From an uncultured Actinomycetota bacterium (lineage in GTDB: Bacteria; Actinomycetota; Actinomycetes; Actinomycetales; Dermatophilaceae): DNA of 64,000 nucleotides. Below are positions 1,506 through 43,151 of the stretch, one piece after another. Each line of letters opens with the position of its first letter. Position 1 is the stretch's first letter. The DNA lies in the NCBI GenBank assembly GCA_963769085.1, contig CAVYKM010000036.1, positions 1,780 through 65,779 on the forward strand, read 5' to 3'. Made by a program: the position numbers and the translations under genes. The notes beneath the pieces were generated by a model. It did no database searches. It was not told the origin of the DNA and saw nothing but the letters and a program-made list of their open reading frames with translations.

Positions 1506-1973
1506 CTACAGACCGAGGTCGCTGCGCAGCTTGGCGACATGGCCGCCCGCCTTGACGTTGTACCGGGCGTCGACAATGGTTCCGGACTCATCCACGACGA
1601 AGGTCGAGCGGATCACGCCCCGGACGGTCTTGCCGTACATCGACTTCTCGCCGAACGCGCCATACGCCTGCAGCACCGCCTTGTCCGGGTCGGAGAGCAA
1701 CGTGATCGTCAGGCCTTCCTTCGCGCGGAACTTGGCCAGTTTCGCGGGGGAGTCCGGGGAGATGCCGAGCACGGCATACCCCTTGGCGGCCAGCGCGTCC
1801 AGCGAGTCGGAGAAGTCACACGCCTGCGTGGTGCAGCCAGGTGTCATGGCCGCCGGGTAGAAGTAGACAATGACCTTGCGCCCGGCGTAGTCGGCAAGCG
1901 AAACCTGCGCTCCCGTGTCGTCGGTGAGGGTGAAGGTGGGGGCAGGGTCGCCCACCGCCAAGCGGTCGGTCAC
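1506..1973 (-). CDS. bcp: thiol peroxidase / peroxiredoxin Bcp
   Basis: YFYPAAMTPGCTTQAC peroxiredoxin motif. GTG start at 1973 with GAGGAG about 8 nt upstream. Confidence 0.9.
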   Translation of the reverse strand: MTDRLAVGDPAPTFTLTDDTGAQVSLADYAGRKVIVYFYPAAMTPGCTTQACDFSDSLDALAAKGYAVLGISPDSPAKLAKFRAKEGLTITLLSDPDKAVLQAYGAFGEKSMYGKTVRGVIRSTFVVDESGTIVDARYNVKAGGHVAKLRSDLGL

Positions 1974-1993
1974 GGCATACTCCTCGTGGTTGC

Positions 1994-2018
1994 TTATTGC
2001 AAAGTGTTCGCAATAAGA
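1994..2018. promoter_or_regulatory. AT-rich palindrome CTTATTGC-N9-GCAATAAG containing TTGCAA-N5-TCGCAA (Nur/Fur-family-box-like)
   Basis: Perfect 8-nt inverted arms in the bcp/cbiM divergent intergenic region. Strikingly AT-rich for this genome. Confidence 0.4.
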
Positions 2019-2089
2019 TTGCGCGCGTCGAACGCGCGAGCACACCGTACCGAACGCCCGCCGGCGCACCCGCACTCGAGGAGGCCATC

Positions 2090-2779
2090 ATGCACGTGCC
2101 CGACGGGTTCCTCGACGCCCCCACCTCCATCGCGACCGGCGTCGTCGCGGTGGGCGCGGTCGCCGCGTCACTGCGTGGTGCCAGACGTGAGCTCGACGAC
2201 CGCACCGCTCCGCTCGCCGGCCTCGTCGCAGCCTTTGTCTTCGCCGCCCAGATGATCAACTTCCCCGTCGCCGCCGGGACATCGGGGCATCTGCTCGGCG
2301 GCACGCTCGCGGCGGTCCTCGTCGGCCCGTGGACCGCCACCTTGTGCATCACCGTCGTCCTCATCGTGCAAGGGCTGCTCTTCGCGGACGGGGGCCTGAC
2401 CGCCCTCGGCACGAACATCACGCTCATGGGGGTCATCGGGGTGTGGGTGGGGTATGCCGTGTTCCGGCTCGCGCTCTTGGCCTCGCCCAAGCGCATCTCC
2501 AGCGTCCCGGTCGCTGCCGCCGTCGGCGGGCTCGTCTCCGTGCCGGTGGCCGCGCTCGCGTTTGCGGGCCTGTACGCCATCGGCGGGACCGCACCGATTC
2601 CCCTCGCCGCCCTGGCGGCCGCCATGGTCGGCGTCCACGCGTTCATCGGCGTCGGGGAGGCGGTCATCACGGCAGTCGTCGTCGGCAGCGTCGTCGCGGT
2701 CCGCCCCGATCTCGTCTACGGCGCCCGGGGCGTCCTCCGCGCCCGCCAGCTGCCGTCCCGTCCGGGGGTGACAGCATGA
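2090..2779 (+). CDS. cbiM: ECF transporter substrate-capture component CbiM/NikM (Co/Ni)
   Basis: N-terminus MHVPDGFLD, multiple TM segments, GGAGG RBS. Confidence 0.9.
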   Translation: MHVPDGFLDAPTSIATGVVAVGAVAASLRGARRELDDRTAPLAGLVAAFVFAAQMINFPVAAGTSGHLLGGTLAAVLVGPWTATLCITVVLIVQGLLFADGGLTALGTNITLMGVIGVWVGYAVFRLALLASPKRISSVPVAAAVGGLVSVPVAALAFAGLYAIGGTAPIPLAALAAAMVGVHAFIGVGEAVITAVVVGSVVAVRPDLVYGARGVLRARQLPSRPGVTA

Positions 2780-3135: not shown

Positions 3136-3889
3136 GCACGGTCACACGGTCTACTACCACGGCCATTCGCTCGTGCATCGCCTCCCGGCGCACCTGAAGA
3201 TCGTTGCCTTGCTGGGCTACGTGCTGCTCGTCGTGGCCACGCCACGCGAGCTGCTGTGGCCGTATGCCGTGCACCTGGCCACCCTGTCCGTCGCGGTGCT
3301 CGTCTCGCGCGTGCCACCGGCATACCTGCTGCGCCGTCTCGTCATCGAGGTGCCGTTCGTCGTCTTCGCGGCGCTACTACCGTTCGTCGCCACCGGTCCG
3401 CGCATCACCGTGCTCGGCCTGTCGGTGTCAGAGCCCGGGCTGCAGGGCGCCTGGGCACTGCTCGCCAAGGGGACTCTTGGCGTGCTGGCCGCACTGCTGC
3501 TGGCCGCCACGACCGAGCCACGCGACCTGCTCGCCGGGCTGGCCAGGCTGCGAGTCCCGCGCCAGCTGGTCGAGATCATGGGCTTCATGGTGCGCTACCT
3601 GGACCTCATCGCCGGGGAGATGCGCCGGATGCGCATCGCCCGGGCCTCTCGCGGGTTTCGGGCCCGCTCGCCGCAGCAGTGGCCGGTGCTGGGCCGCTCG
3701 GCGGGCGCCCTGTTCATCCGCTCCTACGAGCGGGGCGAGCGGGTCCACCTGGCCATGCTCTCCCGGGGCTACACCGGCTCGCTGCCCGTCGCGGCCCCCG
3801 CTGCCCTGCCGCCAGGGCAGTATGCCGTGGCCGCGCTCCTTCCCGCCGCGGCGTTGCTGACCACGGCGCTGGCGTGGAGCCTGCGGTGA
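3125..3889 (+). CDS. cbiQ: ECF transporter transmembrane (T) component CbiQ
   Basis: Polytopic protein with ...EMRRMRIARASRGF... typical of CbiQ/EcfT. Operon position supports the call. Confidence 0.85.
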   Translation: MGAEHGHTVYYHGHSLVHRLPAHLKIVALLGYVLLVVATPRELLWPYAVHLATLSVAVLVSRVPPAYLLRRLVIEVPFVVFAALLPFVATGPRITVLGLSVSEPGLQGAWALLAKGTLGVLAALLLAATTEPRDLLAGLARLRVPRQLVEIMGFMVRYLDLIAGEMRRMRIARASRGFRARSPQQWPVLGRSAGALFIRSYERGERVHLAMLSRGYTGSLPVAAPAALPPGQYAVAALLPAAALLTTALAWSLR

Positions 3890-4629
3890 GCACGCCCGTC
3901 CTGGACGTACGTGGCCTCGGCTACGCCTACCCCGACGGCCATCAGGCGCTCTACGGTGTCGACCTACACGTCCACCGGGGCGAGCGGGTGGCCCTGCTCG
4001 GTCCTAACGGGGCCGGCAAGACCACGCTCGTGCTGCATCTCAACGGCATCCTCACTCCCGGTGCCGGGTCGGTCGCGGTGTCCGGCCTCCCTGTGACCAA
4101 GGCCAACCTGCCCGAGATCCGCCGCCGGGTCGGCATCGTCTTCCAGGACCCGGACGACCAGCTGTTCATGCCCAGGGCGCGCGACGACGTCGCGTTCGGC
4201 CCGATGAACCTCGGGCTGCGCGGCGCCGAGCTGGACCGCCGCGTCGCGCACGCGCTCGCCGTCGTGGGGATGACGGCATACGCGGACCGGCCCCCGCACC
4301 ACCTGTCCTTCGGCCAGCGCCGCCGCGTCGCCGTTGCCACGGTGCTGGCCATGCAGCCGGAGATTCTGGTGCTGGACGAGCCGTCGTCCAACCTGGACCC
4401 CGCGTCGCGCCGCGAGCTCGCCGACATCGTCACGAGCCTCGACGTCACCGTGCTGATGGTGACCCACGACCTGCCCTACGCCCTGCAGCTGTGCGAGCGG
4501 TCGGTCATCCTCTCGGACGGCGTCATCGTGGCGGACGGACCGACTCGCGACGTCCTTTCCGACGCCGAGCTCATGGCAGCGCACCGGCTCGAGCTCCCGT
4601 ACGGCTTCGATCCCTCGCTGACCCGCTGA
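3886..4629 (+). CDS. cbiO: ECF transporter ATPase CbiO
   Basis: Walker A GPNGAGKTT, signature LSFGQRRR, Walker B ILVLDEP. GTGA overlap with the cbiQ stop. Confidence 0.9.
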   Translation: MSTPVLDVRGLGYAYPDGHQALYGVDLHVHRGERVALLGPNGAGKTTLVLHLNGILTPGAGSVAVSGLPVTKANLPEIRRRVGIVFQDPDDQLFMPRARDDVAFGPMNLGLRGAELDRRVAHALAVVGMTAYADRPPHHLSFGQRRRVAVATVLAMQPEILVLDEPSSNLDPASRRELADIVTSLDVTVLMVTHDLPYALQLCERSVILSDGVIVADGPTRDVLSDAELMAAHRLELPYGFDPSLTR

Positions 4630-4649: not shown

Positions 4650-5975
4650 CTAGCTCTCCCAGCGAGGCTCGTCCGAGCCCCAGGGATGCGGGGCGAACGG
4701 GTAGGCGTCGAGCCCCGGCAGGGAGAACGCCGGCCGCGACTGCACCAGCCGGCCGTATGCCGTGTCGCTGGCGGTGAGGTAAGGCTCGGACTCGGGCGGG
4801 ATGTCTGCCTCCAGCGGCCCGGGGCCGTGGTTGAGCAGCCAGCTCGCCGTGGCCGCCAGGTGCGCGTCGACCCGCCACGTCCGGCCCTCGAACTCGCGAC
4901 GCCACAACGCCGTGAGCACCCCCGCGGCGAGCAGGTACCCGGTGGCGTGGTCCAGCGCCTGCACCGGCAGGACGCTTGGCGTGACGCCGTCGGCCGACTC
5001 GGCCCAGGCGATCCCAGAGGCGGCCTGCACGATGCTGTCAAAGCCACGCCGGTTCGCCCACGGCCCGGTCGGCCCCCACGCCGAGAGGGAGGCGTGGATG
5101 ACCGACGGGTAGCGGGCGGCCACCGTCTCCGCGTCGAGCCCGTATCGAGCCAGCGCTCCTGGCCGGTAACCGGTAACCAGGATGTCGGCCTCGGCCAGCA
5201 GCTCATGCAGGCGAGCGAGGTCGGCGGGCCGACGCAGGTTCAGCAAGGTGGTGCGCTTGCCCGCACCTGTGTCCAGATGCACCTCCGGGACCTCGGGCAG
5301 GTTCGGGTCGTCAACGCGCAGCACGTCGCACCCCAGGTAGGCCAGGGTTCGGGTGGCCACCGGCCCCGCGACCACCCGGGTCAGGTCGAGCACCTTGGGC
5401 CGCTCCAAGGGCCTCGGGCGGGCCCGACCGACCGCACGCACGTTCACCAGCCGCAGACCGGAGGCGGCCCGACCCGCCTCTGACGCAGTCCACTCGGCCT
5501 GCTGACGAGCCCGCACCGCGACGCCTCCGGCGGCCATGAGCCGCTCCTCGACCTGTTGGGCTGTCTGGGAGCACAGCGCTGCGGCCAGCTCCTCGCGCCC
5601 GGCATCCGGGTCCAACCCGAGCAGGTTCGCGAGCGCGGCGCGGTGGTGGGAGTAGTTGGCGTGGGTGCGGAGCCAACCCTCCGCTGTGGGGAAGAACCCC
5701 GACCATGGGCCGAAGCCCTCCGACCGACGCCCGTCGATGGTCTGCACCTGCTCGCCGAGCATGGCCACCCGCACCTGGGCGGGGTTCACGTCGATGCGGC
5801 CGGTGTTGAGCAGCGCCTCGGCGGCCAGTCCGGCGGCCGCCACTGACCCAACCGCGAGCTCGTCGGTGGGCAGCCGCCCGGGGAGGAAGCGCCCTGGTCC
5901 GGTCTCCAGGTGCGCAGCGGCATACCCGGCCTCCATCCCCAGCAAGGGCAGCGCGTCACGGAGCAACCGGTTCAC
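4650..5975 (-). CDS. family III CoA-transferase (CaiB/BaiF-like) with N-terminal extension
   Basis: VLDLTRVVAGPVATRTLAYLGCDVLRVDDP...ADILVTGYRPGALARYGL. This is the C-terminal third of the stop-free 1099-aa ORF. The GTG 5975 start is tentative. Confidence 0.75.
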   Translation of the reverse strand: MNRLLRDALPLLGMEAGYAAAHLETGPGRFLPGRLPTDELAVGSVAAAGLAAEALLNTGRIDVNPAQVRVAMLGEQVQTIDGRRSEGFGPWSGFFPTAEGWLRTHANYSHHRAALANLLGLDPDAGREELAAALCSQTAQQVEERLMAAGGVAVRARQQAEWTASEAGRAASGLRLVNVRAVGRARPRPLERPKVLDLTRVVAGPVATRTLAYLGCDVLRVDDPNLPEVPEVHLDTGAGKRTTLLNLRRPADLARLHELLAEADILVTGYRPGALARYGLDAETVAARYPSVIHASLSAWGPTGPWANRRGFDSIVQAASGIAWAESADGVTPSVLPVQALDHATGYLLAAGVLTALWRREFEGRTWRVDAHLAATASWLLNHGPGPLEADIPPESEPYLTASDTAYGRLVQSRPAFSLPGLDAYPFAPHPWGSDEPRWES

Positions 5976-6017
5976 GGCATACCGTCCCCCCGGCCAAGCC
6001 CACCCCTCATGACCACG

Positions 6018-6097
6018 TGCGCACGGCGGGAGTCGAACCCGCACGCCGAGGCACAGGAACCTAAATCCTGCGTGTCTGCCAGTTCCACCACGTGCGC
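6018..6097 (-). tRNA. tRNA-Leu (anticodon TAG)
   Basis: Acceptor GCGCACG/CGTGCGC, anticodon arm CAGGA-TTTAGGT-TCCTG, 11-nt variable arm, T-arm GCGGG-TTCGACT-CCCGC, discriminator A. CCA is not encoded. Confidence 0.85.
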
Positions 6098-6169
6098 CCC
6101 CCGCACACTGTACCGAGCGACGGGTGTGGTAAACCGGGCCAAAAGGCCTGCCGGGAGCCGCGATGTAGG

Positions 6170-7712
6170 TCAGCCCACCCGGACGACGACGCTGTGATAA
6201 CCGGTCGCGCCGTCCGGGGCGGGCGGGGCCTGCTGGTCGGTCTGCCACTCCCCGGTATTGTCCCGGGCCCGCACCGTCAGCGTGTGTGACCCGCGCGGGG
6301 CGTCCCACTGGTACACCCACTGCCGCCACGAGTCGACCGTGGGCTCCCCGGCCAGCCGGGCGTCCTGCCATCCTCCCGTCGTCAACGCGAACCTGCACAC
6401 CGGTGATCCCGCGGTGCATCGCCCAGGCAACCCCGGCCACGGCCACCTGGCCGGCGCTCACCTGCGCGCCGGCCCGCGGCACGTCGATTCGTGACTGGGT
6501 CTTCACCGGGCCCAAGGCCGACCAGCCGCGAGGCGTCCAGTACCCCTCGTCGACGGCGAACCGGGTCACCTTGAGCTCGGTCACCCACTTGGTGGCCGAG
6601 ACATAGCCGTACAGACCCGGCACGACCAGGCGCACCGGGAAGCCGTGCTCGAACGGCAGCGGCTCGCCGTTCATCCCGATCGCCAGCAGCGCGTCCCGCC
6701 CGTCGGTGAGCACCGACAGCGGAGTTCCCGCGGTCCATCCGTCGGCGCTGCGGGACAGCACCATGTCCGTGCCGGGGCGCGGGCCGGCCTGCGCGAGCAG
6801 CTCACGCACCGGCCATCCGAGCCACAGCGCGTTGCCGACGAGCGGGCCGCCGACCTCGTTGGACACGCACGACAAGGAGGTATGCCGTTGCACGAGCGGC
6901 TTGGCGAGCAGCTCGGCCCAGGTCAACCGCACCTCGTGGTCAACCTCGCCCCACACCCGCAGCGACCAGTCCTCGGCAGTCAGCCGCGGCACGACGAGGG
7001 CCGTGTCGATGCGGTAGAAGTCCGCGTTCGGCACGATCCACGACGTCACCCCGGCGACGTGCAGGTCGGCGTCCCCGGCCGGGGGTGCGAGCCCGTCGGT
7101 GGGCAGTCGGAGGGCGTCGCGCGAAGCGGTGGCGGCCGTTCCGCCCCGTCCGGACACGGGAGCGAACAGCCCCAGTGCGAGCAGCGAGCAGGCCAGCTCG
7201 ATCACGCTGCGCCGGGTCGGCCCGCGCTCGCGGGTCGCCGCGCTGTGCAGCGACCACACGCTGACCACGCCGCCCGCGAGGGTGGGCACCGCGTCAACCG
7301 GGCCGGCGTTCGGCCGGCTCAGCACCGCCCACAGCGCAACCCCTGCGATGAGCGCCATCCCGACCTGCGCGAGAGTGGGCCGGGTGCGCGCGAGCAGACC
7401 CAGGACGGCAAAGAGCGCGGCCAGCACGATCGCCATCCCGACGAACAGCGCTGCCTTGTCGGCCGTGGCGAATGTGGCCACGGCGAAGTCCTTCAGCCAC
7501 GGCGGGGTCGCGTCGACAAAGGCCGCGCCGACCGCGAGCATCGGCGACGGGTTGCCGCCGGTGAGCCCGAGCGCGGACACCACCACCGCCAGCACGGTCG
7601 CCACCGCGAGCCCGAGGGCCCCCGCGGCCAGGCCCCGGAGCGCCCAGCGCAGCCGACGTCGGCGGACCCGCTCGGCCTCGCCGGGCGGCACGGTGCCCGA
7701 CGGAGTGGTCAT
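6170..7712 (-). pseudogene. membrane-anchored molybdopterin-dependent (sulfite-oxidase-family) oxidoreductase; one frame break near ~6375
   Basis: N-terminal TM region followed by SLSCVSNEVGG...GFPVRLVVPGLYGYVSATKWVTEL. After VQVRVDDG the homology continues in ORF 6170..6430 (WQDARLAGEPTVDSWRQWVYQWDAPRGSHTLTVRA). ATGA overlap with the rdgB stop. Confidence 0.75.
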
Positions 7713-8344
7713 GGCCCGAGCAGCCGGCCCAGGTGCGGCGCCAGTGCGCGGAACGCCCGGCCACGATGGGAGATGGCGTTCTTCTCCTCCTTGGTGTGCT
7801 CGGCCAGCGTGCGGGTGTCGCCGTATGGGATGAGGATCGGGTCGTAGCCAAAACCATTGGTGCCGCGAGGATCCCGAGCCAGCCGGCCCAGCAGCCGGCC
7901 GTAGGTGGCGGCGCTGCGCCCGTCGGGAAGGGCCACGACGGCGGCGCATGTGAAGGACGCGGCGCGGTACGCGTCGGGCACGTCGGCAAGCTGGTCCAGC
8001 AGCAGCCGCACGTTGACCTGGTCGCGTTCGGGGCGAGTCAGGTTGGACCCACCCAGCGACCCGGACCAGCGGGCGCTGAAGACCCCGGGGCTACCGCCCA
8101 GCACGTCGACCGTGATCCCGGAGTCGTCCGCGACGACCGCCATCCCCGTCGCCTCGACCAACGCGGTGGCCTTGAGCCGGGCGTTGCCTTCGAAGGTCAC
8201 CTCCGTCTCGGCGACGTCCGGGGCGTCGGGGAAGTCCGCGACGGAGAGCAGCTGCAGGCCCAGGTCCTCGGCGACCTCGGCGAGGATGTGGCGCAGCTCG
8301 CCAACCTTGTGCTCGTTGCGGGTGGCGAGGACCAGGCCGGTCAT
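7709..8344 (-). CDS. rdgB: non-canonical purine NTP pyrophosphatase RdgB/HAM1
   Basis: [14 protein letters not shown]...FGYDPILIP...SHRGRA motifs. Confidence 0.9.
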
Positions 8345-9084
8345 GCTCGCACTCTCGGCTCGGCGGCCAGCGCCGCCCGCTGAGCTGCGGCGAGCTGGGT
8401 GCAGCCGACGGCGGCGAGGTCGAGCAGCCGCCCCAGCACCGCGCGGTCGAACGGCTCCCCCTCCGCGGTGCCCTGCACCTCGACGAAGCGCCCGTCGCCC
8501 GTCATGACGACGTTCATGTCGGTGTCCGCGTCGGCGTCCTCGACGTAGTCCAGGTCGAGCACCGGCTCCCCGTCGACGACCCCGACTGAAACGGCCGCCA
8601 CCGAGCCCGTGAGGGGCTCGTCATCGGCGTCGACGAGCCCCAGGCGGCGGGCCTGCGTGACAGCGTCGGCGAGGGCGACGTAGGCGCCGGTGACGGCGGC
8701 CGTCCGGGTGCCGCCGTCGGCCTGCAGGACGTCGCAGTCCAGGATGATGGTGTTCTCGCCGAGGGCCCGCAGGTCGATGACGGCGCGCAGCGACCGCCCG
8801 AGCAGCCGGGAGATCTCATGGGTGCGCCCGCCGATGCGGCCTTTGACCGACTCGCGGTCCGATCGGGTGTTCGTGGCGCGCGGCAGCATGGCGTACTCCG
8901 CGGTCACCCACCCGCGGCCCTGCCCCTTGAGCCATCGCGGCACGCCCTCGGTGAACGACGCCGCACACAGCACCCGCGTGCGGCCGAACTCGACCAGAAC
9001 GCTCCCTTCGGCGTGGTCGAGCCAGTTGCGCGTGATCGTCACCGGGCGGGTCTGGTCGGGGGCACGGCCGTCGTGTCGGGTCAC
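8341..9084 (-). CDS. rph: ribonuclease PH
   Basis: [17 protein letters not shown]...[19 protein letters not shown]...[21 protein letters not shown] start. Confidence 0.95.
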
Positions 9085-9880
9085 CAGCAGGCAAGCGCCT
9101 GAAGCCGCGCGCGTCTAGCAACTCGTAGGTAGCTCCCGGTGCGGCGAGCTCGACCTCGCCGTCCCATACCGCGGCAGCCTGGGCACGGCATACCTCCGGG
9201 TCGTTCCACGCCGGGATGTGGGTGAGCACCAGCCGCTTGACCCCTCCGGCGGCCATGGCTGCCTCGGCGGCGCGCGACCCGGTGAGGTGGATGCCGCGCT
9301 CGGCGTCGCGACCGTCGATGAAGGCCGAGTCGGCCAGCACGAGGTCGGCTCCGGTGAGCAGTGGTCCGAGAGCCGGGCAGGAGTCGGTGTCGCCGGTGAA
9401 CGCCAGGACCGTCCCCTCGACCTCGACGCGGAACCCGTACGACTCGACCGGGTGGTTCGTGCGTAGCGGGGTCACCGTGAACGGGCCGATGTACAGCGGC
9501 TGTCCGTCGACGAGCGTCTCGAAATGGAAGTGCTTGGCCATCGAGACGATGTGCCCGTAGTAGGCGAGCGACAGCCGCTGCGGTGTGCCGGCCGGCCCGG
9601 CGACCCGGATTGGGCCGCGTGCGTCGGTGCCAGGGCGGTACCGGTGCATGACGTAGAGGCCGTTGAGGTCCAGGTAGTGGTCGGCATGCAGGTGCGTGAG
9701 CAGCACCGCGTCGAGGCCCAGGGGGTCGGTATGCCGTTGCAGCGGCCCCAGGCTCCCGCTGCCCATGTCGACGACGAACCGCCAGGTGCGCCGCTCGTCG
9801 TCGGCCTCGAGCAGGTAGCACGACGCGGCCGACGCCGGCCCGGGAACGGAGCCAGCGCAGCCAACGACGGTGAGCCTCAT
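9081..9880 (-). CDS. MBL-fold hydrolase; positional equivalent of M. tuberculosis Rv1339 cyclic-nucleotide phosphodiesterase; 3' end uncertain
   Basis: HLHADHYLD metallo-beta-lactamase motif. ATGA overlap with the murI stop. As printed, the frame stays open to 8816 inside rph. A one-base shift near 9090-9120 would end it at TGA 9081-9083, overlapping the rph GTG. Confidence 0.7.
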
Positions 9881-10686
9881 CCCGCGGCCACCGGCTCGCG
9901 GTGGGCCTCGACGGCCGCCTCCGGACCGAGGAACCGTCGAGCCAGCCGCGCGAAGACGAGCGGGTCGCCGGTCGTGATGAACTCGTGCAGCGGCTGGCCG
10001 TTGCCGCTGGAGCGCAGCTGGCCGGAGTCGGCGAGCAGGCGGAACAGGTCCTTGGCGGTCTCCTCCGCGGAGGACACGAGGGTGACCCCCTCCCCCATGA
10101 CGTAGCTGATGACGCCTGTGAGCAGCGGGTAGTGGGTGCACCCGAGAATGAGCGTGTCGACGTCGGCCTGCAGCAACGGCGCGAGGTAGCGGCGAGCCAC
10201 CCCCAGCAGCTCGTCCCCGCCGGTCACGCCGTCCTCGACGAACTCGACGAACCTCGGACAGGGCACCGACAGCAGCTCGACGTGCGGCGCCGCCGCGAAG
10301 GCGTCGGGGTACGCGCGGGAGGTGTGGGTGCCCTGCGTGCTGATCACCCCGACCCGGTCGTTGCGCGTCGCCCGGGCGGCCCGGCGCACAGCCGGGCGGA
10401 TCACCTCGATGACCGGCACGGCATACCGCTCGCGGGCGTCGTGCAGGACCGCTGCGCTGGCCGTGTTGCAGGCGATGACGAGCGCCTTGACGCCCCGGTC
10501 AACGACGCGGTCCAGGCACTCGATCGCGAACTCGCGGGTCTGCGCGATCGGCCGCGGGCCGTAGGGAGTGCGGGCGGTGTCGCCGAAGTAGACGACCTTC
10601 TCGTGCGGCAGCTGGTCGAACACCGCTCGCGCTACGGTCAGCCCCCCGTAGCCCGAGTCGAATATTCCGATCGGCGCGTCTGCCAC
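9877..10686 (-). CDS. murI: glutamate racemase
   Basis: [14 protein letters not shown]...IACNTASA...[12 protein letters not shown] start at 10686. Confidence 0.9.
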
Positions 10687-31422: not shown

Positions 31423-31791
31423 GGTGGAGGTGGCGGGAATCGAACCCGCGTCCGATGACGTGGCGGCAGGACTTCTCCGGGCGCAGTGCGCTAAGGCGTT
31501 TCTCGGCCCCAGGGCTCGCACGCACGCGTTTCCTGACAGGCCCAGTCGGGTGCGATTCCCGCGGCGCCCCCCGACGTGACGACACGGTGAGTTCCCTAGC
31601 TGACGCCAGGCACTGAGTCGGGAACTAGCTCAGGCTGACGGACGTCGGAGCTCGCTCAGGCGGCGAGGGCGACGTCTTGCTGCTTAACGTTTTCGGCAGC
31701 TATTCGTTTGCACGGGTCGTTAACGAGATAACCGTGCATCCTCGGCCCGCTTCTCCTGCGACGACGACCACCGTCGAAACCGATCACCCCC
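31423..31791 (-). ncRNA. ssrA: tmRNA (SsrA)
   Basis: 5' GGGGGTGATCGGTTTCGACGG and 3' GCGGGTTCGATTCCCGCCACCTCCACC with G3:U acceptor pair. Internal tag reading frame ...GCC GAA AAC GTT AAG CAG CAA GAC GTC GCC CTC GCC GCC TGA (AENVKQQDVALAA*). Confidence 0.9.
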
Positions 31792-31898
31792 GCGAGGGGC
31801 AGGCCACATCACGCTGTTCAGTTGTGTCGATGCAGAGCATCAGTATGCCGTGTCAACGCTGACGCGGGCCATGCGATTCCCGCAGTGGGTCGCGCCCG

Positions 31899-33500: not shown

Positions 33501-33560
33501 CTAGGGGCCCAGCCTACCGCCCGCCGGCCCCGGTCGCCGTCAGGCCGGTATGCCGTCGGC

Positions 33561-36050: not shown

Positions 36051-36126
36051 CGGCCACGCTACCTGCTCGGCCGGACTGCGGCCGCGTGAGATGGGCCGCT
36101 CGGGCCCGGGTCAGATCCAGGTGCGG

Positions 36127-37450
36127 TCAGATCCAGGTGCGGGGGTTGACGAACTGGCCATCCTCGAGTGTCTCGAAGTGCAGGTGGCAGCCGGTCGAGT
36201 AGCCGGTCGTCCCCGAGTAGGCGATGAGCTGGCCGCGGCTGACCGAGCCGCCGCGCACGACGAACGAGGACAGATGGTTGTAGGTCGTCACCAGGTCCAC
36301 GCCGCGCTGGATGCCATGGTCGATCATGATCCGGTTGCCGTCGCCGCCGCCCCAGCCGGCACTGATGACCGAGCCCGGGGCCGTGGCGTAGACGGGGGTC
36401 CCGCACGGGATACCGAAGTCCGTGCCCGAGTGCAGCTTCCAGATGTGCAGGATCGGGTGGAAGCGCTGCCCGAACTCTGAGGTGATCGGGCCGTCGGCCG
36501 GGTAGTCCAGGTAGTTGGACCCCTTGGCGTTCGTGCCGGAGTTCGGGGCCACGTAGGTCTTGCCCGCCGCCGCTGCAGCCGCCTCGGCCGCGGCCTGCGC
36601 CTCCCTGGCCTTGCGGGCCTGTTCGGCCAACACCGCCTGCAGCCGAGCCTGTTCGGCCTCCGCAGCGGCCAGCTGGGCATTGCTCGGCAGCTTTGCGCCA
36701 CTCGACGTCGTTGGTGTATGCCGTCCGCTGCGCGACCAGGGCGTCGAGGGAGTCCTTGGCGGACTGGGCGCTGGCCTTGGCCGCGTTGGCGGCGGCGAGG
36801 GCCTCGTCGGCTTGGCGCTTCAGCTCGGCGATCTCCGCGCGGACCGCCACGAGGTAGGCCTGCTGGGCCTGCCCGTCGGCACGGACGGCCTGCAGGTTGC
36901 GCAGCGTCTCGTTGGTCGTCGCGGTGACCGTGTCGGCGAGCACCAGCCGGGTCGCGAAGTCGTCCGGGCTGGTCGCCCCCAGGGCCACCGACAGCTCGGA
37001 CGAGGTGCCGCCCTGGAACATGTCCGCGGCGAAGGCGTCGAGGGTGCGCTGGGTGGCGTCCAAGGTCGCAGCGTTCTTCGCGGCCGCCTCGACGGCCCGG
37101 GCCTCGTTCGCCTTGGCGACGGCGAGCTTGGTGGACACCTCCGCCTGATGCGCCGCGGCTGCCTTGGCCTTGGCGTTGGCATCGGCTAGCGCCGCCTCCG
37201 CTGCCGGCACCTGGGCCTGGGTCTGCTGCAAGGACAGGTAGGCGTTGGCCAGCTCGGTGGACGTTCCCTCCAGGGAGCTGTGCAGCTCCGCGACGCGCTG
37301 GTCGGCCTGGCGCTTCTCGTCGTCGGTGTCAGCCCGGGCGAGCGGGGTCACCCCCAACGCCACGACGCAGCCCAGCGCCACCCCGAGCGACAGAACCCGG
37401 CGCGGCCCACAATGACCCCTGCGTCGCACGAACACCATCAGCCCCTTCAT
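36127..37450 (-). pseudogene. coiled-coil + M23-family metallopeptidase (FtsEX-associated type); one frame break near ~36695
   Basis: Signal peptide and long Ala/Gln-rich coiled coil in one frame. HSGTDFGIPCGTPVYA...TGYSTGCHLHFE in ORF 36127..36633. ATGA overlap with the ftsX stop. Confidence 0.8.
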
Positions 37451-38355
37451 ACGTGCAGGTACCGTCGCAGCGTGAACCCGGAGGTCAGCACCGCCAGCAG
37501 AACAACCCCCACGACAACCCACGGGGCGACGACCAGAACGTCAGGCAGCCCGATGAAGGCGGTGTCCAGCAGCGCAGTGCTCAGGTAGCCAGTGACGCCG
37601 TATCGCACCGTCGCCCACAGCATCCCCATGGCCAGACCCGCGCCGAGCAGCGCCGCCACGACGGTTTCCATGACGAAGGGCAGCTGGATGGTGACGTTGG
37701 AGGCGCCGACCAGGCGCATGATGCCCGTCTCGCGGCGTCGGGCGAAGGCCGTCTGACGGATCGTCGTCGCCATGAGCAAGACAGCACAGACGACCATCAG
37801 GCCCGACAGGATGATGGCGGCCCACGAGACGACGTTCATGAACGAGAAGAACTTGTCGAGCAGCTGCTTCTGGTCCTGCACCCGACCGACTCCGGGAGCC
37901 CCTTGGTAGGAGCTCACGATGACGTCGTACTTGCCCGCATCGGTGAGGGACACCCGGAAGGAGTCAGCGAACGCCCGCTCGGTGGCCTGCTCGCCCAGCG
38001 GCGAGTTCTTGAACTGCTCCTTGAACCGCTTGAAGGCGTCCGCCTGCGACTCGTAGTAGACGTCCTTGACCGGCGGCTTCATCTGCTCCAGCTGGGTTCT
38101 GACCTGCTCGCGCTGGGCCTGGGTGGTCGCCTTGCCGCCACACGCGGGGTACTGCGACCCCTCGACACAAAGGAAGATGGACACCTGCACCCGGTCGTAC
38201 CAGTAGTCCTTCATGGTGTCGACCTGCCGCTGGGCGAGCAGCCCCAGACCAAGCAGGTACATCGAGATCATTGTCACGAGGACGACGGAGACCGCCATGG
38301 AGACGTTGCGCCGCAGGCCGCCTGCCATCTCCCCCAGCACAAAGCTCATTCGCAT
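37447..38355 (-). CDS. ftsX: cell-division permease-like protein FtsX
   Basis: Four TM segments and a large extracellular loop. Operon position after ftsE. Confidence 0.9.
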   Translation of the reverse strand: MRMSFVLGEMAGGLRRNVSMAVSVVLVTMISMYLLGLGLLAQRQVDTMKDYWYDRVQVSIFLCVEGSQYPACGGKATTQAQREQVRTQLEQMKPPVKDVYYESQADAFKRFKEQFKNSPLGEQATERAFADSFRVSLTDAGKYDVIVSSYQGAPGVGRVQDQKQLLDKFFSFMNVVSWAAIILSGLMVVCAVLLMATTIRQTAFARRRETGIMRLVGASNVTIQLPFVMETVVAALLGAGLAMGMLWATVRYGVTGYLSTALLDTAFIGLPDVLVVAPWVVVGVVLLAVLTSGFTLRRYLHV

Positions 38356-38369
38356 CGCGGTGACCCCCT

Positions 38370-39182
38370 CTAGTCGCGCTCGGCGGACGGCATACCGGCT
38401 GCCACGGGAGCCGCGGCGTTGACCGCCTTCTCCTCCAGAGCCTCCTCCAGCTCGAGGCCCCGCTCCTGCTCGAGGCGGATCGCCGGCATCGCTGAGGTCG
38501 TCGTGCCGTACTCGCCTCGCGCCTGGTCGCGCACGAGGACGCCGCGGTCGAGCTCAATGACTCGCTTGCGGAACTCGTTGACCATCTCGTCGTCGTGCGT
38601 CGCCATGACGACGGTCGTGCCGGACCGGTTGATCCGCTCCAACAGCGCGACGATGTCGCGGCTCGTCGACGGGTCGAGGTTGCCGGTCGGCTCGTCGGCC
38701 AGCAGAATGGCGGGCTTGTTGACGATGGCCCGCGCGATGGCGACCCGCTGCTGCTCGCCGCCGGAGAGCTCGTGTGGCATCCGCTTGGCCTTGTCGTCGA
38801 GCCCCACGATGCGCAGCGTCTCCGGGACGGTCTGGCGGATCGCGCCTCGGGAGCGGCCGATCACCTGCAGGGCGAACGCCACGTTGTGGTAGACGTTCTT
38901 GTTCGGCAACAGTCTGAAGTCCTGAAAGACCGTGCCGATCTCGCGGCGCAGGATGGGCACCTTGCGCTCAGGCAGCCGCCACAGCTCCCGGCCGGCCACG
39001 AGCACCGACCCCGAGGTCGCGTTCTCCTCCTTGAGCACGAGGCGGATCAAGGTGGACTTGCCCGACCCCGACTGACCCACGACGAAGACGAACTCGCCCC
39101 GCCCGACCTCGAGGCTGACCTGGTCCAGCGCAGGTCGGGAGGTCTTTCGGTAGGTCTTGGTGACGTTGTCGAAGAGGATCAT
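38370..39182 (-). CDS. ftsE: cell-division ATP-binding protein FtsE
   Basis: [38 protein letters not shown] at 39182. Confidence 0.9.
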
Positions 39183-39337
39183 GCCGGCTTCTTCGCTCGG
39201 GGACTCGGGCGGCACCGGCATACCTCCACACCCGGCGCGTCTTCGAGGGTACGGGTGTTGCGCAGGAAGCGCACGTTACCGATGGGACTGGCGTGGCGTG
39301 CGGAGAGCCGGCCGCCCACGAGCCACCCTCGCCGAAA

Positions 39338-39392: not shown

Positions 39393-39401
39393 CGGTGTTG
39401 G

Positions 39402-40511
39402 TCAGGCGTCGCGCTCGGCGCTGCGCTTCCAGCGGATGCCGGCCTCGATGAAGCCGTCGATGTCCCCGTCGAACACGGCGGACGGGTTGCCGACCTCGTA
39501 CTCGGTGCGCAGGTCCTTGACCATCTGGTAGGGCTGCAGGACGTAGGAGCGCATCTGCTCGCCCCAGCTGGCCTTGATGTCGCCAGCCATCTCTTTCTTC
39601 GTGGCGGCCTCCTCCTGCTTCTTCAGCAGCAGCAGCCGCGACTGCAGCACGCGCAGCGCCGCCGCCCGGTTCTGGATCTGCGACTTCTCGTTCTGCATCG
39701 ACACGACGATCCCCGTCGGCAGGTGCGTCATCCGAACCGCCGAGTCCGTCGTGTTGACGCTCTGCCCGCCCGGCCCGGACGAGCGGAAGACGTCGACCTT
39801 GAGCTCGCTCTCCGGGATGTCGATGTGGTCGGTCTGCTCGATCAGCGGCACCACCTCGACCGCCGCGAAGGACGTCTGCCGCCGGCCCTGGTTGTCGAAC
39901 GGGCTGATCCGCACCAACCGATGGGTGCCCGCCTCGACCGAGAGGTTGCCGAACGCGTAGGGCACCTTGACCTCGAAGGTCGCCGACTTCAGGCCGGCCT
40001 CCTCGGCGTAGGAGGTGTCCAGCACCTCGGTCGGGTACCCGTGCCGCTCGGCCCAGCGCAGGTACATCCGCAGCAGCATCTCGGCGAAGTCGGCGGCATC
40101 GACCCCACCCGCCCCGGACCGGATGGTCACGACGGCCTCGCGCGCGTCCCACTCCCCGTTGAGCAGGGTGCGGACCTCCAGCTCGCGAACCTCCTTGGTC
40201 AGCGCCTCCAGCTCGCGCTCGGCCTCCTCGCGCGTGCCGGCGTCGTCCTCTTCCTGGCCCAGCTGCATCAGGACCTCGAGGTCGGCGATCCGGCTGTCCA
40301 TCCCGACGACCCGGTCGCGCTCGGCGTTCGCCCGGGAAAGGGCTGAGGTCACCTGCTGGGCCTTCTCCTGGTCGTCCCAGAGGTCAGGGGCACTGGCCTG
40401 CTTCTCCAGGTCGGCAATGCGGCTGCCCAGCACGTCCAGATCGGTGACCTCTCGCACGGAGTCCATGGTCGCGCGCAGCTGCTTGAGCTGCTCGGCGAAG
40501 TCGACGGCCAC
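39402..40511 (-). CDS. prfB: peptide chain release factor 2
   Basis: SPF tripeptide region (RISPFDN) and GGQ motif ([12 protein letters not shown]). Contiguous frame, no programmed frameshift. GTG start at 40511. Confidence 0.9.
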
Positions 40512-40522
40512 GAACGCCCAGC

Positions 40523-42697
40523 CTACGGGAAGGGACTCTTGGCGAGCTGCCGCCACTTCGTCAGCGCCCGCTCTGTGTAGCCGTTCGGCTCGGCCCGCCC
40601 CGAGAGGACGAGATCCAGCGCCGCCCGGAACGACGGGCTGGCGTCCAGGTCTTTGCTCATCGGCTGGTAGCCCGGTTCGGTGCTGTTCTGCTCGTCGACG
40701 AGCGCGGCCATCCGGGCGAACGTCTCGCGCACCTGAGCCTCGTTGACCAGCCCGTGGTGCAACCAGTTCGCGATCTGCTGGCTGGAGATGCGCAAGGTCG
40801 CGCGGTCCTCCATGAGACCCACGCCCTCGAGGTTCGGCACGGTCGAGCAGCCGATGCCGAGGCCGACCCAGCGCACGACATACCCGAGAATCGACTGGGC
40901 GTTGGTCTCCAGCTCGTGCTGCTTGTCCCGCTCAGACAGCGACGCCCCGCTGTCCGGCAGCACCGGCGCCACCAGCAGCGCGCGTCGGTCGGCCAGTGGC
41001 CGCTTCGCCAGCTCCTGCTGCACGGCGAGCACGTCGGTCTGCAGGTAGTGCAACGCGTGCAGGGTTGCGGCAGTGGGGCTGGGAACCCACGCGGTGCTGG
41101 CCCCGGCGCGCGGGTGTGCCCCCTTGGTGTCGAGCATCTCGCGCATGGCGGCGGGCTTGGCCCACATGCCCTTACCGATCTGGGCCCGCCCAGCGAACCC
41201 GGCTCGCAGCGCCACGTCGACGTTGCGGTCCTCGTATGCCGTGAACCAGGTCTGGTTCTTCTCCTCGTCCTTGCAGACCATCGGGCCGGCTTCGAAGTCG
41301 GTGTGGATCTCGTCGCCAGTGCGATCCAAGAACCCGGTGTTGACGAAGATGACCCGGTCGCTCGCCCGGGCGATGCACGCCTCCAGGTTGGTCGAAGTGC
41401 GTTTCTCCTCGTCCATGATGCCGATCTTGATGGTGGCCGGCGCTAACCCGAGCGCCTCCTCCACCGCGGCGAACAGGTCCACCGAGAGCGATACCTCCTC
41501 GGGGCCGTGCATCTTCGGCTTGACGATGTAGATGCTGCCCGTGCGGGTGTTGCGGTACCGACCGAGGCCGCGCAGCTCGTGCATCGAGGCGACCGCGGAC
41601 ACCACTGCGTCGAGGACCTCCTCGAGGATGGGTTCGCCCGATGTGGTCCGGACGGCGTCCAGGCGCATGTGGTGGCCGACGTTGCGAACCAGCAGCAGCG
41701 AGCGCCCCGGCAGGGTCAGGGGCCCACCGTCGGTGCCGACGTAGGTGCGGTCGCCGTTGAGACGGCGTGTCACCTCGCGCCCGTCCTTGCCGAACGTGGC
41801 GGTCAGCCGGCCCGTTCGAAGCCCGAGCCAGGTGCGGTAGGCGCCGACCTTGTCCGGCCCGTCGACCGTGGCAACCGAGTCCTCCAGGTCCACGATCGTC
41901 GTGACCGCCGACTCCACCATGACGTCGGACACCCCCGCGTGGTGCTGCCGTCCCACCTGCGTCGACCTGTCGATTGCCAGCTCCACGTGCAGCCCGTGCC
42001 GGCGCAGGAGCACCGCGCCGAGCGCGTCGCCGTCGGGGACGCGACGGTGCGCCACGAACTGTTCCGGATCGACCAGCCTGGTCACGCCCTGGGCGGTTTG
42101 GAACGTGAGCCGGCCAGGCGAATCGACCTGGTAGGCAGTCACATCGGCGTGGCCGGCATCGACCAGCGGGAAGTACAGATCCAGCAGCCGGTCCGCCTCG
42201 GTGATGACCTGGGCACCCCGGCGCACGTCGTAGCCGGGCGCCAGCTCGTGGTCCAGGGGCAGCGCGTCGGTGCCGTAGAGCGCGTCGTACAACGACCCCC
42301 ACCGGGCGTTCGCCGCATTCAACGCGTAACGGGGCACGGCCGCTGGCACCACCAGCTGCGGGCCGGCCACCGTCGAGATCTCCGGATCCACCCCGGTGAC
42401 CCTCACCACCGGCTGCTCCAGCGGCAGCAGGTAGCCGATCTCGGTCAGGAACGTCTCCAGCGCCCGCAGGTCGCCCGGCCCGTGCTCGCGGTGCCAGCCG
42501 TCGATCCGCTCCTGAAGCTCATCCCGGCGACGCAGCAGCTCCTCGACCCGTCCGGCGAACCGCTCGTGCAGCCGGCCAACCGTCGACCAGAAGCTCGTCG
42601 GCTCGAGATCGAGCCCGGCGAGCAGCTCGCCGTCGACGAAGCCGCGCAGCTGGGGGTCGACCTGCAGCAGCGCGCCCGTGCTGCTCGTCTCGGTCAC
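40523..42697 (-). CDS. glcB: malate synthase G
   Basis: 724 aa, full length. [13 protein letters not shown]...[11 protein letters not shown]...[21 protein letters not shown]. Confidence 0.95.
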
Positions 42698-43151
42698 TTA
42701 CCTCTCCTCACCACAGCCGCCACCGCATCGCGACGCCGGCAACCGACGGTACGCCCACCCGGCCGGCACTCGCACTCAGCTGCCCCGCGTTCGCTGATTC
42801 GTCCGTGCCCTCTGGCCGTGCCGGCATCGGATGTGATCGCGGCCTACTCGCCTGTGTGGGGACGTGGCGACCCGGAGCAGGTGCCGTGACGTCCCCCGGT
42901 CGGGCTCTCGAACAACTCCTGGACCGGCCTGTGCCGCCGCGGGCGTGGCCCCGATCCGCCTGGCCGCGGATACCGGTTCATGCACTCGCGAGGCTCCGGA
43001 ACCGGTTGGGATGCGTGCATTCCACCATGCCTGCCATCGGCGATGGCTATTGGGCCCAGCGTTGGGCGCCGGCATACATTCGCCGACGTGAAGACCTTCG
43101 CGCCCAGCCAGTGATGAGCGGGCGCCGGGCACACCGGCGGAAAGGATCGCA

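Follow-up and report, generated by a model that had tools for sequence, protein, structure and literature searches.

A hyper-abundant, orientation-alternating octamer in core DNA of a Dermatophilaceae clade: a candidate word for DNA uptake or transfer

The octamer and its setting

The DNA considered here is a 64-kb window (64,000 nucleotides, the whole stretch that was analyzed) of contig CAVYKM010000036.1 from an uncultured member of the Dermatophilaceae (Actinomycetota), and its most conspicuous feature is the non-palindromic octamer CGGCATAC (reverse complement GTATGCCG). An exact search of the whole window returned 53 copies, 27 on the plus and 26 on the minus strand, spanning 1772-43077 at about one per 800 bases. 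The core that carries them (1-43 kb) is ordinary housekeeping DNA, with genes for a Cpn10-family protein, Bcp, CbiMQO, RdgB, RNase PH, MurI, ClpS, and nicotinate phosphoribosyltransferase, and further for the homogentisate pathway, CorA, SmpB, tmRNA, release factor 2, and malate synthase G. The remaining 20.9 kb (43078-64000) contain no copy at all, which has a probability of 2e-12 at core density. Codon usage in this tail resembles that of the core, and its 22 Ala-Tyr or Tyr-Ala dipeptides include no motif; a plasmid search with the tail sequence gave a single, irrelevant match. The initial annotation, made by eye, had reported the same 53 copies with none beyond 43077, no overall strand bias, and a restriction to native, non-island DNA. 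The exact search reproduces the count and the balance (27:26), the empty tail, rich in insertion sequences (IS), supports the restriction, and all coordinates proved exact but three, with 4756, 29641, and 35389 corrected to 4755, 29640, and 35379.

CGGCATAC is the top-ranked 8-mer by frequency in the window, despite having three A/T positions in DNA of ~70% G+C. Dinucleotide-preserving shuffles (n = 100) yield 1.13 +/- 0.99 copies with a maximum of 4, and synonymous-codon shuffles of the called coding sequences (n = 1000) yield 1.28 +/- 1.10 with a maximum of 6, against 33 observed in those sequences. The second null errs on the conservative side, since TAT and GCA, rare codons that the motif itself contributes, remain in the shuffled pool. 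A maximal-order Markov null is unsuitable for this word, since its sub-words are inflated to the same degree and hide it, and was replaced by the two shuffles and by an empirical outgroup null. The latter, drawn from 1.63 Mb of loci of outgroup actinobacteria with similar G+C, stands at 0.015 copies per kb and corresponds to 0.66 copies in the 43-kb core.

The word is sharply bounded. In the window, 54 of the 56 GCATAC hexamers and more than half of all CATA and ATAC tetramers fall within CGGCATAC, its 24 one-mismatch variants occur 0-11 times each, and the sharpness is equal at all eight positions. Over 175 unique contexts the best flanking positions carry only 0.2-0.3 bit, so the word is no part of a longer repeat, and a dispersed repeat of the repetitive extragenic palindrome or miniature inverted-repeat transposable element type was rejected on the same grounds (flanks of at most 0.3 bit per position). 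The form GTACGCCG has only two copies in the core, the number previously noted; the exact positions are 14937 and 29676. The tail, although shorter, has three.

By our own gene calls about 45 copies are coding and about 8 intergenic, an intergenic share of 15% compared with ~12% non-coding DNA. There is no enrichment at gene ends or in intergenic DNA within the window, and the deciles of within-gene position are roughly flat. Orientation relative to the coding strand divides 18:16 and all frames are occupied, reproducing the frame classes and the spread over all frames and non-coding DNA that had been described from the sequence. The dominant frames, nCG-GCA-TAC (Ala-Tyr, 13 copies) and G-TAT-GCC-G (Tyr-Ala, 12 copies), are those needing just one rare codon. 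The counts confirm that both codons are rare in the core, with TAT at 24 of the 257 codons for Tyr and GCA at 85 of the 1405 for Ala; the motif accounts for 14-16 of these 24 TAT codons. Synonymous changes alone suffice to create the word where Ser, Pro, Thr, or Ala precedes Ala-Tyr, or where a residue with a G-ending codon precedes Tyr-Ala followed by Val, Ala, Asp, Glu, or Gly; in the core, 30 of 42 such contexts (71%) carry exact CGGCATAC.

Selection on codons or dipeptides was considered and rejected, since copies occupy every frame as well as non-coding DNA and codon shuffling yields 1.3 copies. An RNA-level signal was also rejected, as both orientations relative to the coding strand are used (18:16). 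The initial proposal of a DNA-level process, not protein-level selection, is supported by the same two observations (every frame used; 1.28 copies against 33), and the codon-shuffled null that it had suggested, run on the coding sequence of the window, left the excess standing.

Distribution among relatives and origin of the copies

The nicotinate phosphoribosyltransferase of the window is identical to that of an NCBI metagenome-assembled genome (MAG) labelled Dermatophilaceae bacterium, and among cultured organisms it is closest, at 74-76% identity, to Intrasporangium, Lapillicoccus, and Terrabacter. Loci of relatives, designated here by L and a number, were fetched around this gene. The word is present in L284 (96% protein identity; 18 copies in 16.7 kb), L285 (88%; 17 in 21.3 kb), the Dermatophilaceae MAG L287 (80%; 29 in 21.3 kb), the metagenome contig L082 (22 in 15.6 kb), Lapillicoccus (L288; 10 in 9.9 kb), Intrasporangium oryzae NRRL B-24470 (L282; 15 in 21.4 kb), and Terrabacter aeriphilus (L283; 6 in 21.3 kb). 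Among 80 malate synthase G loci only one Dermatophilaceae MAG bears it (14 copies in 11.5 kb), and loci of Geodermatophilus, Blastococcus, Pseudonocardia, Actinomycetospora, and Alphaproteobacteria hold 0-3 copies each (loci up to ~22 kb). In a neighbor-joining tree of the nicotinate phosphoribosyltransferase protein the motif-bearing loci form one clade, beside motif-free Yimella (L286; 1 copy in 21.6 kb), and density within the clade runs from ~0 to 1.9 copies per kb. The word is absent from Yimella and from every other actinobacterium sampled. CGGCATAC marks one monophyletic clade, GTDB Dermatophilaceae / Intrasporangiaceae, with a single origin; its cultured members with the word are I. 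oryzae, Lapillicoccus, and, weakly, Terrabacter.

Relative to outgroups the pooled density is 78x in the richest lineages and 31x in intermediate ones, and that of the one-mismatch forms is 0.98x and 1.35x, respectively. Among these forms the A+T-rich decay forms are raised 4-7x and the G+C-rich precursor is lowered 2.7x. The first 5.2 kb of L285, with three phage-integrase-family genes and helix-turn-helix genes, contain no motif and the adjacent 16 kb contain 17; this integrase cluster (L285 1-5200) adjoins the molybdopterin oxidoreductase gene. The base after the word is C in the window (29 of 53) and in nearer relatives, and G in Intrasporangium and Terrabacter (16 of 21, against 32 of 155 elsewhere; P = 8e-7). 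This lineage-specific base, if real, resembles the dialects of uptake sequences, although reading-frame usage may contribute to it; dialects of the DNA uptake sequence (DUS) have been described (PMC3630211).

No comparable hyper-abundant word was found in other actinobacterial lineages with the empirical pooled null on these loci. An order-2 Markov scan of all loci for other words was too noisy because of codon effects. Words frequent in single loci include CGTACTCC (10 copies) and AGGAGTAC (8) in L150, AATGCCGC (8 each) in an uncultured Rhodospirillales MAG (L069) and an alphaproteobacterial MAG (L073), ATTGCCGC (8) also in L069, AAAAGGTG (14) in L076, GGAATTCC (10) in L071, and CGTCACTA and AGTAGTGA in L115; some of these may be ordinary repeats. 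A scan of viral contigs with the inverted motif pair returned at least 120 loci, nearly all with only the chance hairpin, and was uninformative, most matches to a pattern with 16 specified bases arising by chance. Three IMG/VR viral contigs of 60-66% G+C (L255, L273, and L206) have 4-5 motif copies in 3-7 kb and may be prophage fragments from motif-bearing hosts.

Codon alignments polarized against outgroups reveal how individual copies were built. At pncB codon 100, GGC TAC GCC G in the outgroups became GGG TAT GCC G in 15 clade members through two synonymous changes, of which one is a transversion that yields a rare Gly codon, and at codon 175 GCG or GCC became GCA in 14 members. At pncB codons 48-50, TAC GGC (Tyr-Gly in ~75 outgroups) became TAT GCC (Tyr-Ala), a Gly-to-Ala replacement, and in murI C-TAC-GAC-G became G-TAT-GCC-G, replacing Asp by Ala. 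In other copies, 3-5 positions distinguish the word from its orthologues. Since transitions, transversions, and amino-acid replacements all occur at these sites, the word was assembled in place by point changes of every kind. The initial annotation had suggested such an alignment of orthologues, and the ancestral states differ at several positions, not by TAC-to-TAT alone.

The same annotation had also listed as a possible source a C-to-T bias (deamination or very-short-patch repair) at GTACGCCG, in which case the word would be the functionless end product of a context-specific mutation or mismatch-repair bias. TAC-to-TAT and GCG-to-GCA are indeed single C-to-T changes on either strand, the one-step precursor CGGCGTAC/GTACGCCG is depleted 2.7-fold in motif-rich lineages (6.0 against 16.4 per 100 kb), and GTACGCCG is found twice in the core as against three times in the shorter tail. 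However, the precursor pool in outgroups (0.16 per kb) falls seven-fold short of the 1.2 copies per kb to be explained, the ancestors GTACGGCG, CTACGACG, CCGCCTAC, and GCGCTTGT require transversions and changes at positions 1, 2, 3, 5, and 6, and the changes include the Gly-to-Ala and Asp-to-Ala replacements. Nor is the sister precursor CGGCCTAC depleted, all eight positions are equally sharp, the motif raises local A+T against the compositional trend of the genome, copies are conserved and not merely replenished, and the co-resident island lacks the motif despite similar codon usage. With too small a precursor pool and transversions needed, the proposed source fails; as the sole cause, a mutational or repair bias is largely refuted, and we regard a functionless end product as very improbable.

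Copies are also retained far beyond neutral expectation. With L284 (93.1% nucleotide identity over 13 kb) the window has 18 of 18 copies in common in both directions, where neutrality predicts ~10 of 18 (P = 3e-5), and with L285 (85.8% identity) 13 of 15 (P = 7e-6). At sites with conserved amino acids, the exact 8-mer persists in 9 of 11 comparisons for L082 and L083 and in 27 of 48 for the rest of the clade; control 8-mers in the same phases are retained at 26-27%, and outgroups retain the motif at 3 of 134 sites. I. oryzae and the window have only 1 of 4 alignable sites in common. As deep branches mostly have their own sites, accumulation went on independently in several lineages.

In pncA an inverted pair of copies (15125-15154, with a 14-nt spacer) is kept in several lineages, at L082 5982-6011, L087 2597-2626, L284 9516-9545, and L285 11755-11784. 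At 14937-14944 the window reads GTACGCCG where L285 and L083 have exact GTATGCCG at the orthologous pncA site, reflecting either a loss in the lineage of the window or parallel gains elsewhere.

A sequencing or assembly artefact, such as systematic nanopore miscalls at methylated GTACGCCG, has a negligible chance of accounting for the word. A C-to-T miscall would yield exactly TAT and GCA, some related contigs are named in long-read-assembler style (contig_NNNNN), and the window contains split genes. Yet the word is equally abundant in contigs with SPAdes-style names (NODE_..._cov_...), in JGI metagenome contigs, and in the I. oryzae type-strain assembly, and its presence in independent assemblies makes an artefact very unlikely. 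We take the I. oryzae assembly to predate routine nanopore sequencing, and several of the independent assemblies appear to be short-read. The precursor pool is again too small, and many copies are set apart from their orthologues by several base differences and by amino-acid replacements.

Individual copies and the features of the tail are listed in Table 1. Two genes of the window, the tryptophanase-like gene (21234-22904 / 21985-22764) and the sulfatase gene (54456-56150 / 55495-56709), each appear divided into two overlapping frames, as either frameshift pseudogenes or assembly indel errors. A stop-free open reading frame (ORF) of 1099 codons on the minus strand (4650-7949) spans the CoA-transferase gene, the tRNA-Leu gene (6017-6097), and the molybdopterin oxidoreductase gene, and is high-G+C read-through, not a single gene. 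The tmRNA gene (31423-31791, minus strand; tag peptide AENVKQQDVALAA) has no motif within it and is bracketed by the copies at 31354 and 31843, which are in opposite orientations. L081, a MAG contig of the same species, matches the window at 99.8% identity over 4.2 kb but from the 3' end of prfB onward carries an FtsE-like allele of 72% identity, without the ~170-bp spacer of the window (L081 4180-4438 against window 39480-38950), so that either the allele is recombinant or the MAG contig is chimeric.

Table 1. Exact copies of the octamer and features of the motif-free tail, in window coordinates.
Feature	Position	Strand	Context and conservation
Copy	1772-1779	+	bcp/AhpC-TSA gene (1506-1973, -), G-TAT-GCC-G on coding strand, Tyr-Ala
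Copy	1973-1980	+	adjoins bcp start codon, GTATGCC/GTG
Copy	2452-2459	-	cbiM, Tyr-Ala frame
Copy	3262-3269	-	cbiQ, Tyr-Ala frame
Copy	3318-3325	+	cbiQ, Ala-Tyr frame
Copy	3820-3827	-	3' part of cbiQ
Copy	4274-4281	+	ABC ATPase gene (3874-4629), Ala-Tyr frame; retained in L284
Copy	4755-4762	-	3' part of CoA-transferase gene; retained in L284
Copy	5918-5925	+	intergenic, CoA-transferase gene/tRNA-Leu; retained in L284
Copy	5975-5982	+	intergenic, adjoins tRNA-Leu (6017-6097); retained in L284
Copy	6880-6887	-	molybdopterin oxidoreductase gene, Arg-His-Thr frame; retained in L284, L285
Copy	9186-9193	+	ORF 9081-9821 (-), Val-Cys-Arg frame; retained in L284, L285, L082, L088
Copy	9729-9736	-	ORF 9081-9821 (-), Arg-His-Thr frame; retained in L284, L285
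Copy	10419-10426	+	murI, Tyr-Ala frame; outgroups C-TAC-GAC-G (Tyr-Asp)
Copy	12543-12550	+	3' part of DUF2017 gene; L285 reads CCGCATAC at site
Copy	13522-13529	-	pncB codons 48-50; common to L082, L083, L284, L285; outgroups TAC GGC
Copy	13678-13685	-	pncB codon 100 (GGG TAT GCC G); common to 15 clade loci
Copy	13902-13909	+	pncB codon 175 (GCG GCA TAC); common to 14 loci including I. oryzae
Copy	15125-15132	+	pncA, Ala-Tyr frame; left arm of conserved inverted pair
Copy	15147-15154	-	pncA, Tyr-Ala frame; right arm of inverted pair, 14-nt spacer
Copy	17354-17361	-	ORF 16810-17664, Gly-Met-Pro frame; retained in L284, L285
Copy	17594-17601	+	3' part of ORF 16810-17664; retained in L284, L285
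Copy	18477-18484	-	fumarylacetoacetase gene, Tyr-Ala frame
Copy	18551-18558	+	fumarylacetoacetase gene, Ala-Tyr frame
Copy	20292-20299	-	uncalled or intergenic stretch 19993-20554; retained in L285
Copy	21364-21371	+	tryptophanase-like gene, Ala-Tyr frame; retained in L082
Copy	21487-21494	+	tryptophanase-like gene, Ala-Tyr frame; L082 reads CGGCCTAC
Copy	21605-21612	-	tryptophanase-like gene, Tyr-Ala frame; retained in L082
Copy	21841-21848	+	tryptophanase-like gene, Ala-Tyr frame
Copy	22391-22398	-	tryptophanase-like gene, Gly-Met-Pro frame; retained in L082
Copy	23138-23145	-	tautomerase gene, Ala-Tyr frame
Copy	23300-23307	+	tautomerase ATG start codon inside motif
Copy	24169-24176	+	intergenic (24150-24191)
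Copy	24543-24550	-	Cys/Met pyridoxal phosphate enzyme gene, Ala-Tyr frame
Copy	25499-25506	-	rhodanese-like gene
Copy	25771-25778	+	rhodanese-like gene, Tyr-Ala frame
Copy	26238-26245	+	corA, Arg-His-Thr frame
Copy	27367-27374	-	3' end of gene 27360-27755
Copy	27951-27958	+	AlgH-like gene, Tyr-Ala frame
Copy	29448-29455	-	SLT-domain gene, Ala-Tyr frame
Copy	29640-29647	+	SLT-domain gene, Ser-Met-Pro frame
Copy	29699-29706	-	SLT-domain gene, Gly-Ile-Pro frame, rare ATA codon
Copy	30803-30810	-	poorly resolved stretch 30715-30882
Copy	31354-31361	+	intergenic, one side of tmRNA gene (31423-31791)
Copy	31843-31850	-	intergenic, opposite side of tmRNA gene
Copy	33548-33555	-	DUF2207 gene 3' end, or spacer beside MptB-like gene
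Copy	34623-34630	+	DUF2207 gene, Tyr-Ala frame
Copy	35379-35386	-	DUF2207 gene, Gly-Ile-Pro frame
Copy	36716-36723	-	ORF 36059-37522 (-), Ala-Tyr frame
Copy	38388-38395	+	3' end of FtsE-like ABC ATPase gene (38370-39221)
Copy	39216-39223	+	ATG start codon of FtsE-like gene inside motif
Copy	41234-41241	-	malate synthase G gene, Ala-Tyr frame; retained in L060 (85% nucleotide identity)
Copy	43070-43077	+	last copy; intergenic, upstream of enoyl-CoA hydratase gene
Motif-free tail	43078-64000		IS-rich accessory region from ~44.4 kb
Tail transposase	44491-46329		IS1182-like
Tail transposase	48098-48943		Mutator-family fragment
Tail transposase	50278-50637		DDE fragment
Tail accessory genes			LuxR regulator, split sulfatase, two SulP permeases

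Orientation, spacing, and candidate readers

Copies in the window are more evenly spaced than random (coefficient of variation, CV, 0.79; P = 0.04), with a largest gap of 2.3 kb against 3.6 kb expected (P = 0.02), and their orientations alternate, forming 37 runs against 27.5 expected (P = 0.005). In nine lineages, which are partly non-independent through sites common by descent, neighboring copies point in opposite directions in 114 of 166 cases (69%), where 84.7 would be expected (P < 5e-5); in the four lineages with few sites common to the window the share is 64% (P = 0.03). Within each orientation, too, the copies are regularly spaced, with a CV of 0.68 and 0.65 as against 0.97 (P = 0.02 and 0.01; label permutation P = 0.009). 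All of these samples are short loci, and the patterns await confirmation in whole genomes. The median distance to a same-orientation copy is 334 bp for the 12 unconverted contexts and 956 bp for the 30 converted ones (Mann-Whitney P = 0.005; permutation P = 0.025), while the distance to the nearest opposite-orientation copy does not differ between the two (P = 0.9). As conversion tracks the distance to same-orientation copies, a local mutational or repair bias is insufficient. The initial annotation had noted neither the alternation nor the family-level spread of the word, which extends to cultured type strains. Orientations are balanced in the window (27:26) and in every related locus, without replication-type skew within loci; a polarity of the Chi or KOPS (FtsK orienting polar sequence) type was rejected, there being no skew in the window or in at least 14 other loci.

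From these properties we infer a word that would be recognized as double-stranded DNA by a lineage-specific protein and whose exact sequence would confer a transmission or selective advantage. By analogy with DUS and with uptake signal sequences (USS), we favor, tentatively, an account in which CGGCATAC serves as a recognition word for DNA uptake or transfer, spread by molecular drive and read directionally; the pattern is what was observed here, and the uptake or transfer machine, the competence, and the directional model are what we infer from it. Cells of the clade would preferentially import, or pass among themselves, fragments bearing the word, and these would replace the resident allele via homologous recombination. 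Variants that create the exact octamer would be over-transmitted and then shielded from loss, so that over long periods the word would fill the recombining native genome wherever proteins tolerate it, most cheaply in Tyr-Ala and Ala-Tyr dipeptides, and recently acquired islands would remain bare. The word would be read directionally or strand-specifically; if so, a nearby copy in the same orientation would add little, which would produce alternation and even spacing per orientation.

Several precedents bear on this account. Natural transformation is known in the same order from Micrococcus luteus, where it needs Flp pili and ComEA/ComEC (PMC4322843). DUS occur in excess in the core, are missing from genes acquired recently, and are highly conserved (Treangen 2008, PMC2397512), and the interplay of uptake sequences in coding regions with the proteome has been analyzed by Findlay and Redfield (PMC2817400). 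The step from perfect to one-off forms of uptake sequences is 80-90-fold (PMC1939737), and USS are described as equal between strands and evenly spaced (Karlin 1996, in the form in which PMC2238722 cites it).

A number of observations weigh against an uptake or transfer word. No competence, pilus, methyltransferase, or translocase gene is found in the window, no gene links CGGCATAC to uptake or transfer, and competence is not known in any member of the clade. The statistics for relatives come from loci of 2-22 kb around two genes (malate synthase G and nicotinate phosphoribosyltransferase). Forms with a single mismatch remain in excess in USS and DUS genomes, which is not so for CGGCATAC overall. 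In Bakkali's reanalysis of H. influenzae fragment data USS orientation had no significant effect on uptake, and the USS and DUS literature we examined contains no report of alternating orientation, so the account needs an extra assumption. Alternation fits an intracellular directional reader equally well, and conservation and even spacing are also expected from selection for an intracellular function, which is what Xu et al. concluded for HIP1 (highly iterated palindrome 1).

Accordingly weighed as a rival is an intracellular, direction-dependent genome-maintenance signal under natural selection, which we consider unlikely but a serious contender. It could be an unskewed Chi-like regulator of AdnAB or RecBCD, with one oriented site for each side of a two-ended break, or a mark of self DNA for a translocating enzyme. 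Each orientation would then be needed at regular intervals, and selection would hold each of them at roughly one copy in 1.5 kb. The regular spacing within each orientation, the alternation, the interference confined to copies of the same orientation, the strong conservation, and the confinement to native DNA all fit. An exact 8-mer is also the size read by RecBCD and FtsK-family translocases, and a word rare by chance in 70% G+C DNA would separate self from foreign. On the other hand, the known Chi words and those of KOPS and SRS (SpoIIIE recognition sequence) are skewed with replication direction, and the loci examined here are balanced; Chi, moreover, is over-represented only few-fold, not 30-80x. 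Selection for a minimum density fails to predict the 71% conversion or pairs 22-74 bp apart, and replacement of a Gly conserved in ~75 outgroups implies a per-site force too strong for one among thousands of redundant sites.

A further rival is an HIP1-like element that contains or overlaps a lineage-specific methyltransferase target and acts as a mark for nucleoid organization, strand marking, or methylation-dependent exchange; we judge it rather unlikely. CGGCATAC and HIP1 agree in length, are comparably over-represented, and are both conserved and non-randomly spaced. If a non-palindromic site were methylated on one strand only, alternation would mark both strands regularly. HIP1 itself is reported to enhance transformation in a way that depends on methylation, and through this link to transformation the rival overlaps with the uptake account. 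Against it, CGGCATAC is non-palindromic (compare its reverse complement GTATGCCG) with no palindromic sub-site of at least 4 bases, and the window contains no methyltransferase gene. A fully specified asymmetric 8-bp methyltransferase target would be unusual.

The last of the functional rivals is a variant of the uptake or transfer account in which drive acts through conjugation. The word would be a recognition or loading site for a conjugative FtsK-like double-stranded DNA translocase of the TraB type, and chromosomal segments rich in it would be mobilized more often and hence spread. Directional reading of non-palindromic 8-bp words is a property of FtsK-family gamma domains (examples are KOPS, SRS, and the TraB recognition sequence), and conjugation of the TraB type is known from mycelial actinomycetes. 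The length, asymmetry, and orientation-dependent interference of CGGCATAC fit, and Intrasporangium forms branching mycelium (PMC3035309). No TraB or FtsK-like gene is present in the window, though, and a word that is stable throughout a family speaks for a chromosomal reader that is itself conserved. TraB recognition sequences are plasmid-specific and sit in clusters at clt loci, not scattered through chromosomes at one per kb. We therefore hold this variant to be improbable.

Returning to uptake or transfer of DNA, CGGCATAC might, on a still more guarded estimate, be the first specificity word for these processes outside Proteobacteria (and Cyanobacteria, if HIP1 qualifies), and one that is read directionally, its copies forming an array of alternating orientation and even spacing. 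Full-text searches for both orientations of the octamer, for uptake sequences in actinobacteria, and for either subject in connection with Intrasporangium returned nothing relevant in the literature covered, which excludes subscription journals, and the I. calvum genome paper makes no mention of the octamer. The earlier statement that it has no described actinobacterial counterpart agrees with these searches within the same coverage, and in the literature we could search CGGCATAC is the first lineage-specific hyper-abundant short word found in Actinomycetota. For the known words of this kind, no description of alternating orientation was encountered there.

Significance and comparison with known systems

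Word-filled genomes are known in few groups (Neisseriaceae, Pasteurellaceae, and cyanobacteria), and earlier cases taught how self DNA is discriminated from foreign and how selfish transmission bias reshapes proteins; CGGCATAC adds a case in Actinomycetota, in a family of soil bacteria. Carriers can be cultured (I. oryzae NRRL B-24470 and, with a weak signal, the culture-collection strain T. aeriphilus), and the range of 0-1.9 copies per kb in a single clade suits a search for the responsible gene by phylogenetic correlation. Alternation and same-orientation interference point to a directional reader and could discriminate between models. The word is also a sharp marker of native versus recently acquired DNA in genomes and metagenome bins of the clade. 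If it is an uptake signal, it would offer a transformation tool for a group now without genetic tools and would imply self-preferring DNA exchange in a high-G+C Gram-positive family, and, given directional reading, a single uptake or transfer event that is polar to the signal.

Of the known systems, very-short-patch/Dcm bias in E. coli (CCWGG versus CTWGG) shares with CGGCATAC the loss of a one-step neighbor, here the 2.7-fold depleted CGGCGTAC. It concerns one position, produces a modest excess, and can neither build an 8-mer via transversions nor give distance-dependent orientation.

Chi, KOPS (GGGNAGGG), SRS, and the TraB recognition sequence are non-palindromic, up to 8 bp long, directionally read by a translocating enzyme, and enriched in native DNA. 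Chi and FtsK-family words are strongly skewed with replication or towards dif, or clustered on plasmids, and in few-fold excess, whereas CGGCATAC is balanced and alternating within every locus and in 30-80x excess.

HIP1 (GCGATCGC) of cyanobacteria is likewise an exact octamer, with site conservation within and between reading frames and non-random spacing. It is over-represented 15-300x, up to more than 1 per gene, and is now being linked to transformation (10.1101/2024.09.10.611283; 10.64898/2026.06.24.733823). HIP1 is a palindrome embedding two orphan methyltransferase targets, and CGGCATAC is fully asymmetric, without a known methyltransferase. The periodicity of HIP1 is on a scale of 10-90 kb, compared with a regularity of ~1-2 kb that is orientation-specific in CGGCATAC.

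The closest analogues are DUS of Neisseriaceae (GCCGTCTGAA core) and USS of Pasteurellaceae (AAGTGCGGT core). CGGCATAC differs from them in its length (8 bp against 9-12 bp), its near lack of a flanking consensus, one-mismatch forms that are not in overall excess, neighbors that alternate and interfere only in the same orientation, the lack of observed inverted-pair terminators, and its occurrence in a high-G+C Gram-positive family without known competence or uptake specificity. What it has in common with them is broader: a short non-palindromic word at about one per kb in tens- to hundreds-fold excess, equal orientations with no replication skew, more even spacing than random, and a very sharp drop to one-mismatch forms (78x against 0.98x for CGGCATAC). 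Like DUS and USS it occupies coding and non-coding DNA in low-cost frames with flanks that vary by lineage, and it is concentrated in native or core DNA, missing from recently acquired DNA, and conserved between related genomes. The HIP1-like elements and the uptake or recognition sequences that the initial annotation had put forward are still the best analogues.

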